This document shows, piece after piece, positions 1 through 3,535 of a stretch of DNA of 23,345 nt. Both the position numbers and the translations under genes were made by a program. Location of the stretch: NCBI GenBank assembly GCA_051117555.1, contig JBNPEG010000217.1, forward strand, positions 1-23,345, written 5' to 3'. The stretch's first letter is position 1. Each line of letters begins with the position of its first letter. The notes beneath the pieces were generated by a model, which was not told the origin of the DNA, ran no database searches, and saw only the letters and a program-made list of their open reading frames with translations. The DNA comes from Elainellaceae cyanobacterium. Lineage in GTDB: Bacteria; Cyanobacteriota; Cyanobacteriia; CAZCXK01.

Positions 1-100
1 GTGCTTTTGTGTAAAGCTCACTGCGTGACACCCCTAACTGCTGAGCAAGTACTTCCGCCTGTTCAAAAACTGAATCTGGAAGCGAAATTGCAGTTTTCAT
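1..100 (-). CDS. Ribbon-helix-helix antitoxin (ChpI/MazE6/CopG-like), partial, runs off the window; first gene of integron cassette 2
   Basis: Not in the ORF track. ATG at 100-98 gives MKTAISLPDSVFEQAEVLAQQLGVSRSELYTKA..., the MKTAISLPD...SRSELY pattern of RHH antitoxins usually paired with MazF/PemK toxins. Confidence 0.85.
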   Translation of the reverse strand, partial: MKTAISLPDSVFEQAEVLAQQLGVSRSELYTKA

Positions 101-130
101 AGTGACGTTAGTTTAAAGTTCTATTCTTTA

Positions 131-150
131 GTGATACCTCAGTTATACCA
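131..150 (-). promoter_or_regulatory. Candidate cassette-internal promoter/operator of the antitoxin gene
   Basis: Minus strand TG-G-TATAAC (extended -10-like, 150-142) within GGTATAAC-TGA-GGTATCAC, ~40 nt upstream of the ATG. TA cassettes usually carry their own autoregulated promoter. Confidence 0.5.
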
Positions 151-224
151 GAGCTGCAAGAACGAGCACACTTAGATACCAGCAGAGAGCCTCTCTGTAC
201 GTCCTGAGCCAAAAACCGGATGAC

Positions 225-311
225 AGCTAACGGTGCCCATCACCCGTCGCAGATACCTTTGAATACTCACAGACAACCTCTTGGCGGTCGGGTGCATGGG
301 CGTTGTTGTGC
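225..311 (-). other. attC: attC recombination site (87 bp)
   Basis: Minus strand reads R'' GCACAAC, 5-nt spacer AACGC, L'' arm CCATGCACCCG, variable loop, L' arm CGGGTGATGG, spacer GCACC, R' GTTAGCT. The L'' arm has one extra unpaired base, as expected for attC. It lies 35 bp downstream of the cassette 1 stop codon. Confidence 0.92.
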
Positions 312-944
312 GGCGCTAATACCCTGATCTGATTCAGAATCACTAACTAATCATTTCTGCGACCACTACCACCTGCCCAAGGCGGAGGTCCACCTGCCTC
401 ACGAATTTGAATCACTTCGCCGCCATCACGAGTAATTGTGTAAGCATCAAAATCTTCATCATCATACTCCCCAACAACAGTGACACTCTCTCCAGGAGTG
501 AAGTTAAGTTGATGATACCAACGTGGTCCGGCATCAACAATTACCTGTCCGGTTCCATCATCCAGAATAAATTCATTGCCAACAACACTACGGATTTCAC
601 CTGAGATTGAAATTCCTGGATTTCTCTGGAGATCACGAATTGAAACCTGAGCTTGAGCAACGGAAACTCCTACCGCAGTTGTTGTAGAAACTAGAACAGC
701 CAGAAAAGCCGATTTCATGAGTAAACACCTCTTTGCTTCACACCTTCTAGACTCTAGAATAACAAAACTCAAATCTTCATCTGAGCATGAATACTTATAA
801 TATGCATTCTATTCTTTCTATTGTCGCTGTGTCACAGGATTAGCAGCTACATTGTTCCTATCAATTGCCCTGAGGTATCGAGGTTTGCAATATTGACCGG
901 ATATTTTCAAGTTACTCTTTTCACCCCAAAAATCAGCAGCACAA
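231..944 (-). mobile_element. Integron gene cassette 1 (first position, ~714 bp)
   Basis: The 5' core GTTGTGC (945-939, minus strand) is the exact complement of this cassette's own attC R'' GCACAAC (311-305), as expected for an integrated circular cassette. Confidence 0.85.
347..718 (-). CDS. Secreted bacterial OB-fold protein (NirD/YgiW/YdeI-like)
   Basis: ATG at 718 with an AGAGGTG RBS is preferred over the TTG at 772. Signal peptide MKSAFLAVLVS...AQA is followed by GEIRSVVGNEFILDDGTGQVIVDAGP...VTVVGEYD, typical of BOF domains. Confidence 0.8.
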   Translation of the reverse strand: MKSAFLAVLVSTTTAVGVSVAQAQVSIRDLQRNPGISISGEIRSVVGNEFILDDGTGQVIVDAGPRWYHQLNFTPGESVTVVGEYDDEDFDAYTITRDGGEVIQIREAGGPPPWAGGSGRRND

Positions 945-958
945 CTAAAGTTGCATAT
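939..958 (-). other. attI: attI simple site (crossover between 945 and 944)
   Basis: Minus strand ATATGCAAC-TTTA-GTTGTGC: an R core (GTT) preceded by an inverted L-like box. It sits between the intI 5' end and the first cassette, with no attC fold upstream of it. Confidence 0.78.
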
Positions 959-1166
959 CACCTCCTCTGAGGGCATTTATGCCGACTATTATCCGCATAA
1001 ATGCCCAAATTGGGGGGTTATACAGAACTCTTTCGGGCTATCTACTCGAATTAGAGTGTTATGCCGACTGGGGTCGTGATAACTATCCTTACATGGGTGT
1101 TTAGCCTGATTTTGTTCTGCATAATATCCTTACCAAGGAATGTTATGCCGATAGCTTCAGCAAGTC
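950..1166. repeat. Phased array of degenerate dyad-symmetric units (~41-42 bp period) between attI and intI
   Basis: 24-bp 10-4-10 units at 977 (TTATGCCGAC-tatt-ATCCGCATAA), 1018 (TTATACAGAA-ctct-TTCGGGCTAT), 1059 (TTATGCCGAC-tggg-GTCGTGATAA), 1101 (TTAGCCTGAT-tttg-TTCTGCATAA) and 1143 (TTATGCCGAT-agct-TCAGCAAGTC). Confidence 0.85.
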
Positions 1167-1201
1167 TTTATAGTGAGTACGGAGACGCAAGTGTAATATT
1201 T

Positions 1202-1215
1202 AGTACATAAATACC
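1202..1215 (+). promoter_or_regulatory. Candidate cyanobacterial LexA (SOS) box upstream of intI
   Basis: AGTAC-ATAA-ATACC has one mismatch to RGTACNNNDGTWCB. It lies just downstream of a -10-like TAATAT (1194-1199) and 20 nt upstream of the ATG. Confidence 0.6.
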
Positions 1216-1235
1216 ACCTCCATCTACCCTTGGCT

Positions 1236-2198
1236 ATGGAATCTCGACCTAAAAAGCTGCTTGACCAAGTCCGCGACGCTATTCGCCTGAAACACTACTC
1301 CTACCGTACCGAGCAAACCTATGTCGGATGGATTCGTCGGTACATTCTCTTTCATAACAAGCGGCATCCTAAAGATATGGGGACACTAGAAGTTGAGGCG
1401 TTTCTAACTCACTTAGCAGTAGAAGGGAAAGTTGCCGCATCAACCCAAAATCAAGCTCTCTGCGCTATTTTATTCCTTTATAACAACGTTTTGAATCAAG
1501 AGCTAGGCAAATTAGATGCGGTTCGAGCAAAACGTTCAAAATATTTGCCAACCGTTTTAACTAAAGCAGAAGTTAGAGGCATCCTTCAGCATGTATCAGG
1601 GGTTCCGGGACTCGTCATCCAGGTTTTATATGGTAGCGGTTTGCGCCTTAGTGAAGGGCTAGGTCTTCGAATTAAGGATCTTGATTTTGCTCAACGTCAG
1701 ATTGTGGTGCGCGATACAAAAGGCAATGAAGACCGAGTCACTATGTTGCCGGATAGTTTAATTACTCCTCTGCAGCAACACCTTCAAAAAGTGAGACGGT
1801 TACATGAGTTGGACTTAGATCAAGGCTATGGTTCTGTTTATCTACCCTTTGCCTTAGAACGTAAATACCCCTATGCAGATCGAGCCTGGATCTGGCAATT
1901 TGTCGTTCCTTCCTCATTTCGATGTCGCGATCCTCATAGTGGCGTTATTCGTCGTCACCATCTCCATGAAAGTGGGGTACAGAAAACTTTAAAACAAGCT
2001 GTGCGTGTAGCTGGCATTGCAAAACGTGTTGGGTGCCATACATTTCGCCATAGTTTCGCCACCCACCTGCTGGAAGATGGCTATGACATTCGTACAGTAC
2101 AAGAACTGTTAGGCCATAAGGACGTCAAGACGACGATGATTTATACCCATGTGCTAAATCGAGGCGGACGGGGTGTGAGAAGTCCGTTGGATGGGTGA
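1236..2198 (+). CDS. intI: Integron integrase (tyrosine recombinase)
   Basis: N-terminal [22 protein letters not shown]...RHP and [16 protein letters not shown]; IntI-specific insertion [19 protein letters not shown]....DP.SG..RRHH; intact catalytic motifs [22 protein letters not shown] and TMIYTH. ATG 1236 is preferred over TTG 1230. Confidence 0.98.
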
Positions 2199-2269
2199 AG
2201 GCGATCGCCAAAGACCGGTTCTAAAGGATCATCACCCCCGAATCCCATTAAATCTCTCTAATAAGCCAA

Positions 2270-2283
2270 AGTACGGTTGTATT
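2270..2283 (+). promoter_or_regulatory. Second candidate LexA box
   Basis: AGTAC-GGTT-GTATT has one mismatch to RGTACNNNDGTWCB and is followed by a -10-like TACACT at 2295-2300. Confidence 0.5.
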
Positions 2284-2314
2284 TCTTTCACGAATACACT
2301 ATTCTTTGCCATTA

Positions 2315-2508
2315 AGCGCTCAAACGAGCGGCGCTCTCTAGAAGTGCAGGCACACGTTCCAGAGAGCTAATCCCCAACTGTCAGTACACAGTCGGAGACT
2401 ACAGTCTATGGTATAGCTCCTGTAGCCATCCTGCTTTGTCATGCAGAAAATTCGGGATGGCCCTTTGTTTGAGCGCTCCTTATCAAACAACAAGTAGGAG
2501 CAACTATA
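2315..2508 (+). ncRNA. Putative structured leader / cis-regulatory RNA
   Basis: Perfect 11-bp long-range helix 2315-2325/2467-2477 encloses hairpins 2333-2367, 2373-2395 and 2425-2461. Two GCTCCT anti-SD copies (2416-2421, 2475-2480) are complementary to the SD AGGAGC (2496-2501). Confidence 0.5.
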
Positions 2509-2744
2509 TGGTTTATCCACCCAACCCGCCCGGTGGGGCGGACAGCTCATCGCGTCCGGATGATGAGCGCCATACCCTGCGCATCATTGCCGTGGGGTCA
2601 CTCACCGTCGTCAACTACTATGTGATGCAGATGTATCAACTCGACTATGCCGAACCAGGTGAATGGTCAAAACCCTTGCCCACGGTGAATCCCAATGAGG
2701 TGATGCGGATTTTGACTAAGCGTATTCGGGGGTTGAATATGTAA
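2508..2744 (+). CDS. Small cyanobacterial hypothetical protein (78 aa)
   Basis: AGGAG SD 7 nt before ATG 2508, in frame with ORF 2436-2744. The C-terminal LRIIAVGS...YAEPGEWSKPLPTVNPNEVMRILTK resembles a multi-copy family of small cyanobacterial proteins (from recall). Confidence 0.75.
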   Translation: MVYPPNPPGGADSSSRPDDERHTLRIIAVGSLTVVNYYVMQMYQLDYAEPGEWSKPLPTVNPNEVMRILTKRIRGLNM

Positions 2745-2780
2745 CGCCCAAAGAAAAGTATGCGTTTATCGCATATGTTA

Positions 2781-2867
2781 AGATCCCCCGCTGTCGCTGC
2801 CCCTTGAAAAGGTGGCTATTTACGGATGGCTGAAGTCGCCCTTTTCAAGGGAGATTTAGGGGGATCT
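2781..2867. repeat. Cyanobacterial REP/MITE-like palindromic element
   Basis: Nested inverted repeats AGATCCCCC (2781-2789)/GGGGGATCT (2859-2867) and CCCTTGAAAAGG (2801-2812)/CCTTTTCAAGGG (2840-2851). Confidence 0.75.
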
Positions 2868-3082
2868 CTAGGGCGTTACGCTAAATGCATACTGATATAT
2901 AGCAACTACTACAATTTTTGGTAGAGGCGCGATCGCACTCGATTAGATCATGATCAAACTTGATTGAAGGCACCTATCAAATTTGCTATTTAATCAGAGC
3001 TTAAACGCAGCATAACCGTCATGCCTGCACCCTCTGCGCTAACGTTGACAAGACGAATTTAATCGTGGTGTAAGAGAACGGC

Positions 3083-3535
3083 ATGAGTAGTCAAGGCAAA
3101 AAGCGATTAAACGCATGTTTGGCGATCGCTAGCTATGCCGCTGGAGGAGGCGCTGCATCTGTGGCACCGACCCCCTGTATGGAAGTCCCCAAGCAGATTG
3201 TATTAACTGCATCAGACGTGATGATGTATGCGTCGATCTGGAAGATTTATTTTGAAGAAGACCTGACTCAGAAAGACATCCTTTCCATGCTGGCAGAGGT
3301 CGGAATCGTGTCTGTTGCAGCATTTGGGACTGCCTATCTAGTTGCCCGAGGCAGTACGGCATTGCTGCACGAAATCACTGATTGGATTGGTCCCATAGGA
3401 TGGGGCATGTCGGCGTTGATTTCGGGTTCTCTGGGAGGGCTGTCAGGCATGGCGTGGGCGTTCTATTGCGATCGCCTGTATGAACAACGCCATCTAGACT
3501 TGCAACACAAAAAAATACGAGTCAAGCCAACCTAG
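3083..3535 (+). CDS. Hypothetical membrane-associated protein, DUF697/YcjF-like
   Basis: 150 aa with Gly/Ala-rich hydrophobic helices (AAGGGAASVAPTP; IGPIGWGMSALISGSLGGLSG). Overlaps the convergent metK-like gene by 14 bp. Confidence 0.6.
   Translation: MSSQGKKRLNACLAIASYAAGGGAASVAPTPCMEVPKQIVLTASDVMMYASIWKIYFEEDLTQKDILSMLAEVGIVSVAAFGTAYLVARGSTALLHEITDWIGPIGWGMSALISGSLGGLSGMAWAFYCDRLYEQRHLDLQHKKIRVKPT

Follow-up and report, generated by a model that had tools for sequence, protein, structure and literature searches.

Current models of the integron capture site, attI, rest on attI1 with its four IntI1 sites and on Vibrio attIA, which has no accessory sites. IntI1 is reported to bind the L and R boxes of attI1 together with two direct repeats, DR1 and DR2 (PMC12901181), whose sequences are given in PMC3146285; PMC8946536 describes these repeats as favouring attI x attC recombination and proposes that they act as topological filters. 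These sources name DR1 and DR2 as the only accessory repeats of attI1 (PMC8946536; PMC12901181), in agreement with an earlier note on the DNA studied here, and present Vibrio attIA as devoid of accessory repeats (PMC8946536) and most environmental attI families as devoid of direct repeats (PMC3146285). Our analysis concerns the first 23,345 bases, hereafter the window, of contig C211 in an Elainellaceae cyanobacterium genome of 6.06 Mb (6,060,088 bases). In this stretch, five dyad units spaced 41-42 bp apart lie between the attI crossover, where the first gene cassette begins, and an intact integron integrase gene, intI. Positions 945-1166 constitute the attI of a chromosomal integron, and we consider it probable that this phased row of R/L-box-like sites is bound by the integron's own integrase as double-stranded DNA.

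The window contains an integron-type tyrosine recombinase gene together with an attC-bounded cassette that is transcribed away from it. The gene, intI (1236-2198, + strand), encodes an intact integrase of 320 amino acids that matches TIGR02249 with 466.1 bits (cut-off 265) over profile positions 1-313 of 315, full length and free of stops, and a genome search found it to be the sole complete integron integrase copy. The attI simple site occupies 939-956 and consists of two inversely oriented core boxes, with a G|TT crossover adjoining the first cassette: R box GCACAAC at 939-945, a 4-nt spacer, and L box GTTGCAT at 950-956. The first six bases of cassette 1, GCACAA (939-944, + strand), are the exact complement partner of the cassette's own attC box, GTTGTGC (305-311), which is a signature of circle insertion and puts the inferred crossover at 944|945. 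Homology to relatives and to metagenome contigs stops at 946/947, within 3 nt of that point. The L box, which the earlier note had correctly placed as GCATA at 953, doubles as a relic reverse half-site at 951-959 (- strand), recognized in an alignment (A1) with three relatives (L008, L009 and L144) and in loose contig ends from two public runs (X1 and X2). This relic lies one period upstream of the reverse half-site at 992, the cassette having taken the place of the forward half of its dyad.

Beyond the simple site, towards intI, further core-like sites follow one another in a regular row. Five forward half-sites of the form TTAKRCnGA start at 977, 1018, 1059, 1101 and 1143, with start-to-start spacings of 41/41/42/42, exactly the starts and spacings that had been claimed before, and motif-free autocorrelation of the upstream region gives z = 5.0 with a best lag of 41. 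The exact half-site TTATGCNGA is present at 977(+), 992(-), 1059(+), 1116(-) and 1143(+), with a one-mismatch site at 1018(+), and occurs only once elsewhere in the window. The genome holds 216 exact half-sites in all, so that 0.006 would be expected in 175 bp (P(>=5) = 8e-14), and clusters of at least three are confined to the window array and contig C7. The description of the row as five 24-bp dyads stands for the forward halves, which are well kept, and less so for their inverted partners 15 bp downstream, whose quality is good at two positions (992 and 1116), moderate at one (1074) and weak at the other two (1033 and 1158). Dyad 1 (977-1000) consists of TTATGCCGA, 6 nt and TCCGCATAA, and extends to a palindrome at 971-1006 when its GGG/CCC extensions are included (15-nt arms, 93% complementary). 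Dyad 2 (1018-1041) combines the forward half TTATACAGA with a weak reverse half; dyad 3 (1059-1082) combines TTATGCCGA with TCGTGATAA, which has two mismatches; dyad 4 (1101-1124) has TTAGCCTGA and TCTGCATAA; and dyad 5 (1143-1166) has TTATGCCGA and a degenerate reverse half, TCAGCAAGT, a form that is kept adjoining intI in relatives. A position weight matrix (described below) calls eight of the ten nominal half-sites, within 977-1151.

Pairwise identity across units amounts to 0.80 for the forward half-sites, 0.46 for the reverse partners and 0.33 for all other columns. Tandem Repeats Finder, run on 700-1300 with a minimum score of 30, returned no rows, because the units are alike at the motif only. 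A simple tandem repeat or minisatellite, whose copies would be at least about 70% alike, was ruled out by this result and by the non-motif identity of 0.33.

The closest described counterpart of this arrangement is attI1. Both sit between intI and the first cassette, both place the crossover in an R box of the GTTRRRY type, and both carry accessory sites with the same core, the L-DR1 pair of attI1 matching the geometry of one array dyad. The differences are of number and order. Whereas attI1 has four sites in about 65 bp, with two accessory direct repeats 19 bp apart, the window has 8-10 sites and the loci of 92 relatives up to 14 matrix-called ones, spread over 200-350 bp; the layout of two direct repeats within about 65 bp is replaced here by ten nominal alternating sites over about 190 bp, in units of 41-42 bp. 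The array further differs from attI1 in its strict alternation about every 20 bp, its GGG extension and its unit of 40-42 bp, and IntI binding, shown for attI1, is a prediction for the array. Site number, alternation, extension and period are thus new relative to attI1. Our literature search, which did not extend to subscription journals and bioRxiv supplements, found no description of such an array; within that scope, the earlier statement that the architecture is undescribed agrees with what we found.

The motif and its period are conserved upstream of cyanobacterial intI genes, a check that the earlier note had proposed. Among 401 sampled genomes of the class, 137 have an IntI relative at E <= 1e-60. 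We collected 92 intI upstream regions, and those of at least 400 nt and free of N (80) were used for autocorrelation. The mean motif-free autocorrelation of these 80 regions peaks at lags 40 and 41 (0.302 and 0.303, over a background of about 0.255) with a harmonic at lags 80-83, and a control made of intI coding sequences has neither peak nor harmonic; individually, 32 of 80 upstream regions reach z >= 3, as against 0 of 80 controls. A position weight matrix built from the upstream regions, (G/A)TTA(G/T)(G/A)CnGA(A), finds at threshold 8 a density of 16.0 sites/kb upstream, 0.45/kb in coding sequence and 0.95/kb in shuffles. By this matrix, 68 of the 92 loci have at least four half-sites, 61 have at least six, and 13 have none or one, with a maximum of 14. 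The nearest same-strand spacing is 40 in 107 cases and 41 in 111, and the forward-to-reverse offset is 14 in 116 cases and 15 in 45. The unit consensus also includes a conserved GGG three bases ahead of the half-site, giving a full site of about 15 bp, GGG-N3-TTAKRCnGA, whose orientation alternates about every 20 bp to form the 40-42 bp unit. Unit number differs between close relatives.

The same layout extends beyond the cyanobacteria. A scan of 185,579 species, one genome each, with a 1.5-unit pattern returned at least 124 array stretches, where by our own estimate about one would be expected by chance. Most of the 80 matches listed are from cyanobacteria; nine are from Chloroflexota/Anaerolineae/Thermoflexales, two from Acidobacteriota, one from Bipolaricaulota and one from 'Berkiella', all non-cyanobacterial carriers being metagenome-assembled genomes (MAGs), whose phylum labels are only as reliable as the binning. 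An IntI match lies within 1.5 kb in 21 of the 80 matches listed, and in all 21 the array is upstream of the intI start. We inspected 11 scan loci by eye, 10 of them without intI, and in 10 a junction lies 5-6 nt from the terminal half-site; the orphan arrays thus have the appearance of attI platforms whose integrase has been lost. A strict RYYYAAC regular expression matched the junction in only 4 of the 21 intI-linked scan loci, although it is visible by eye, and this count was set aside as uninformative.

In addition to their position, the half-sites themselves resemble IntI sites. In the cyanobacterial loci inspected, the junction reads RYYYAA|C and is followed, after 5-6 nt, by the first forward half-site; the same rule is found in five of six non-cyanobacterial loci bearing intI, the sixth having GAC. 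As it lies 5-6 nt from the junction, the first half-site is the attI L box and therefore, by definition, an IntI site. In 34 of 67 arrays a forward site is preceded by AAC at a distance of 5-7 nt, and in most arrays that appear to begin with a reverse site the matrix match is the cassette-side box itself. At 48 junctions the cassette-side R box, which derives from attC sites and not from the array, reads GTT-A(0.73)-K-n-C(0.67)-n-G(0.56)-C, and has preferences in common with the array half-site beyond the classical 7-bp core. Applied to the attI1 sequence (L097) at threshold 4, the matrix matches the L box TTAGGGCGA, DR1 GTTACGCAG and DR2 GTTATGGAG, which are 3 matches in about 80 bp out of 22 in 3,954 bp, where about 0.45 would be expected by our estimate. 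The L box and DR1 of attI1 form a back-to-back dyad with an offset of 16, close to the 14-15 of the arrays.

The form of the half-site also varies with the integrase. A separate IntI clade of six members (SH-aLRT 100) carries other half-sites, TTAKAYGTCA in L088 and L092; the IntI proteins of these two loci share 75% identity with each other and 58-63% with those of the window (L002) and of L044. One genome (G286) has two integrons, the first with six sites of the NGA type and none of the GTCA type, the second with none and four, respectively, each beside its own intI. Comparison of these sequences suggests that the half-site variant tracks the IntI clade and not the host, a pattern unlike that of a host factor and one that is telling but thin. 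In another IntI subclade, three loci (L078, L082 and L083) were seen by eye to have a single dyad of other sequence, TAGATCTC..GAGATCTA-like, beside the junction and no array, and a fourth (L081) has no obvious dyad upstream of intI. Accessory sites thus seem to vary in number between a single dyad and about seven.

A further line of evidence comes from the position of the cassette junction. The arrays of the three relatives in alignment A1, whose IntI proteins are 84-86% identical to that of the window, run for about two further units to a canonical junction, and in the window cassette sequence takes over immediately left of GTTGCAT, where these relatives have an inner unit. Contigs from two soil metagenomes of one study show 2 differences from 947-1221 over 275 nt, and carry one more array unit left of 947. 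Since an intact cassette boundary thus falls at a position that is internal to the array of the nearest relatives, insertion by the integrase at an inner site is the simplest explanation, and inner array sites may serve as crossover points. The earlier suggestion of relic or secondary attI sites is in this way directly supported in its second half, cassette 1 being joined at a position that is array-internal in three relatives and in near-identical metagenome contigs, while the idea of a neutral relic is disfavoured.

Among the three readings put forward in the earlier note, an extended IntI-binding scaffold is the one best supported by the sequences, through the identity of the first half-site with the L box, the likeness of the units to R and L boxes, the motif variants that follow the IntI clade and the lack of hairpin covariation described below. 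On such an array, IntI monomers would occupy the half-sites and build an extended nucleoprotein platform beside the crossover. The platform could keep IntI at attI and promote attI x attC capture, in the way that DR1 and DR2 act in attI1; it could offer alternative crossover points; and, because it would sit between the intI side and the cassettes, it could hinder transcription running from the former into the latter.

Phased protein-binding sites that adjoin a crossover core are also found in the res site of Tn3/gamma-delta resolvase, in cer/psi of XerCD and among the arm-type sites of lambda attP, where the complex assembled on the accessory sites has an architectural role and determines direction and partner choice. 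In res a serine recombinase acts on three dyads, cer and psi rely on host proteins (ArgR/PepA or ArcA), and lambda Int has a separate arm-binding domain. The array differs from all of these in that its accessory sites resemble the core sites themselves; we know of no separate arm-binding domain in IntI.

Several points weigh against integrase binding along the array. The whole interpretation is drawn from sequence comparison, and the half-site counts are circular, for the matrix was trained on the upstream regions that it then counted; the autocorrelation is the one motif-free measure. The most conserved bases of the half-site, G7 and A8, lie outside the classical 7-bp GTTRRRY core, and its first base is G in only 41-49% of sites. 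Array sites face each other across 17 nt, as against 4-6 nt in a recombination core, and the geometry is therefore unlike that of any site where IntI is known to act. The attI1 comparison is a weak test at threshold 4, and the link between motif and clade depends on a single two-integron genome and a quick, midpoint-rooted tree. The junction of the window is one base off a clean G|WT crossover in the metagenome variant, the exact point being known to within about 3 nt. Finally, in 59 of the 80 scan matches listed there is no intI within 1.5 kb, so that the array persists without an integrase in cis; this fits decay of intI, and also a binder encoded elsewhere.

The last point leads to the strongest rival, in which the array is an operator for a different dimeric protein, a host regulator or an unrecognized factor, that controls intI and/or an outward promoter, with IntI acting on the simple site only. 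In favour of this, repressor operators typically show dyad symmetry and regular spacing, conservation peaks at bases outside the classical IntI core (G7, A8 and the GGG extension), and arrays persist without intI (C7, C182 and C173 in the genome under study, and the 59 scan matches just mentioned). Moreover, in all four Chloroflexota loci examined, an 11/12 match to the sigma-70 consensus (TTGACA, 17 nt, TACAAT or TATACT) separates the array from intI, or from where intI used to be, and is directed through the array to the cassettes, where a roadblock repressor would sit. A row of about ten phased repeats upstream of a gene, possibly an autoregulatory operator, also recalls a ParR-parC centromere or an iteron array; no partition or replication gene is seen beside the array, however, the flanks being the integron integrase and a YgiW-like gene (NCBIfam), and the array, unlike ParR-parC, is tied to an integron junction in every locus inspected.

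Against a separate regulator, no partner gene downstream of intI was found to be conserved with the array, intI being its sole companion gene, and the DNA downstream of intI is a dispersed repeat common only within the genus. All three dyads with at most one mismatch genome-wide lie in arrays, and no single operators are dispersed elsewhere in the genome. The half-site variants differ between the two integrons of one genome and track the IntI clade, and the first half-site doubles as the attI L box. Given the spread over several phyla, such a factor would need to move together with the integron, but IntI is all that the platform encodes. We therefore regard an operator for another protein, the third reading of the earlier note, as unlikely.

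Another possibility is that the units act as folded single strands, either as attC-like DNA hairpins or as RNA hairpins in the leader of a cassette transcript. In this regard, the array and attC have a common R-box consensus, and the segment that separates a reverse half-site from the forward one after it resembles a miniature R''-...-R' palindrome, a shrunken attC with an RYYYAA-like box, CCC, a loop, GGG and a GTTRRRY-like box. Compared with shuffled sequences, 945-1170 folds better on either strand (z -4.1 and -5.2), which is inevitable for any row of dyads, and in Chloroflexota a strong promoter is predicted to drive transcription of the array. The pairing itself, however, is not what is conserved. 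Over 169 dyads, agreement between arms at variable positions is 0.56/0.40/0.36 for partners and 0.56/0.40/0.42 for non-partners of the same locus; G:T and A:C mismatches within dyads are balanced (77 vs 84), and a search for covariation between sites facing each other across the spacer found no excess pairing (G:T vs A:C, 208 vs 193). Most dyads are imperfect: a phased search for near-perfect dyads (at least 8/9 paired) found at most one in 75 of 81 loci and no phased chain of two or more, a criterion too strict for counting arrays. An Rfam search of window positions 1-3200 at E <= 1 gave no match. Across phyla the sequence is conserved rather than the pairing; such selection favours recognition as double-stranded DNA, and makes a folded-strand function highly improbable.

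In comparison with attC, the array units are 40 bp long, lack an L box pair, have no pairing covariation and carry no cassette. The identification of the units as attC sites was ruled out, as partner arms have no excess complementarity and the sequence itself is conserved.

Least probable of all is a neutral relic without present function, derived by tandem duplication of the attI simple site or from decayed miniature attC sites that past recombination left behind. In its favour, unit number differs between close relatives, many reverse half-sites of the window are degenerate, and arrays survive beside dead or deleted integrases. Against it, the motif columns have been kept (0.80 identical) while the others drifted (0.33) to the point that Tandem Repeats Finder sees no repeat, which indicates purifying selection on the sites only. 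Most of the 92 loci, which come from many cyanobacterial families, also hold to the period of 40-41 and the offset of 14-15, and other phyla have the dyad-array layout too.

If the array is indeed a binding platform for its own integrase, a conserved architecture of 8-14 sites, present in several phyla, would make the capture site a far larger nucleoprotein machine in much of integron diversity. It would provide a repetitive substrate for studying IntI oligomerization on double-stranded DNA, direction and partner choice, render the 'topological filter' idea of DR1 and DR2 testable, and show whether integrase occupancy controls cassette expression. A bolder and tentative extension, which we hold to be possible and somewhat doubtful, is that in cyanobacteria, Chloroflexota and Acidobacteriota the integrase of the integron forms a phased filament, or 'integrasome', on an attI of 200-350 bp, serving at once as a topological scaffold in cassette capture, as a ladder of alternative crossovers and as a gate on transcription that enters the cassettes from the integrase side. 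In that case the junction could move in or out by whole sites, and recombination and cassette expression would be physically coupled.

An occupant of the array would stand in the path of outward transcripts, and the region next to intI is of interest in this regard. This intI-proximal region (1167-1235), where the intI promoter presumably lies, contains a box, TTTAGTACA at 1199-1207, that is conserved in alignments. The box and the bases that follow it (1199-1216) appear to resemble the cyanobacterial LexA motif, a likeness that would fit SOS control of intI. Cyanobacterial LexA is described by Cambray et al. (PMC3108266) only as recognizing a divergent motif. By our own reading, a candidate for an outward promoter, weaker than those of the Chloroflexota loci, is located at 1196->1167 on the minus strand (TTACAC 1196->1191, 18 nt, TATAAA 1172->1167). 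A promoter scan of 700-1300 returned only a site at 835->806 inside cassette 1 and none in 1167-1235. No RNA run of this cyanobacterium was found, and one metatranscriptome covers small parts of the stretch only, namely cassette 1 and pieces of intI. In one Chloroflexota MAG contig, three tandem modules (L159-L161) have no integrase, and each combines a near-consensus promoter with three dyads and a single gene of cassette type; they resemble repeated attI-plus-promoter units.

The half-site array offers a sequence signature for annotating attI, including platforms without an integrase, and at least four such remnants are present in the genome under study. In the arrays at C7:4250-4384, C182:27396-27545 and C173:28356-28459 intI has been deleted, at C168:29983-30134 it is internally deleted, and beside a weak array at C116:46741-46883 the integrase gene is deleted or truncated. 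The C7 array runs directly, across a GCGATCGC (HIP1) site, into the dispersed repeat that lies downstream of intI in the window. The soil-metagenome contigs that match the window array (99%) skip 618 bases inside intI (window 1221-1840) at a 10-base microhomology; this lineage therefore has a dead integrase and yet keeps its array.

Cassette 1 (231-944, - strand) encodes a secreted YgiW/BOF-like protein with an OB-fold in an open reading frame (ORF) at 718->347, with weak matches to NCBIfam NF033674 and Pfam BOF, both slightly under their cut-offs. Its attC (225-311, about 87 bp, - strand) is bounded by AGCTAAC (225-231) and GTTGTGC (305-311) on the plus strand, ends of the RYYYAAC/GTTRRRY-like type, and an imperfect long hairpin between these boxes folds as DNA into a long bulged stem. 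Contigs in public runs break near both boundaries of the cassette, those of metagenomes and metatranscriptomes doing so near 228 at the attC end. The promoter-like site at 835->806 (- strand; GTGACA, 18 nt, TAGAAT, 10/12) is upstream of the cassette gene, so that cassette 1 may have a promoter of its own.

The DNA downstream of intI (2199-2750 and 2758-2893) is a dispersed repeat. Within it, a 78-amino-acid ORF at 2508-2744 has 18 tblastn matches on 18 contigs of the same genome, the contig of the window included, and no match in Pfam or NCBIfam. This ORF was considered as a candidate binder of the array and rejected as a member of the dispersed repeat that is common only to two loci of the same genus. 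Also downstream of intI, a segment some 135 bp long has more than 25 genomic copies and is reminiscent of a miniature transposable element. At the other end of the window (1-100, - strand), the contig begins inside a second ORF with matches below cut-off to the ribbon-helix-helix families RHH_5 and RHH_1, which resembles an antitoxin-type cassette gene. The assembly breaks at this point, just as it does upstream of intI in many relatives.

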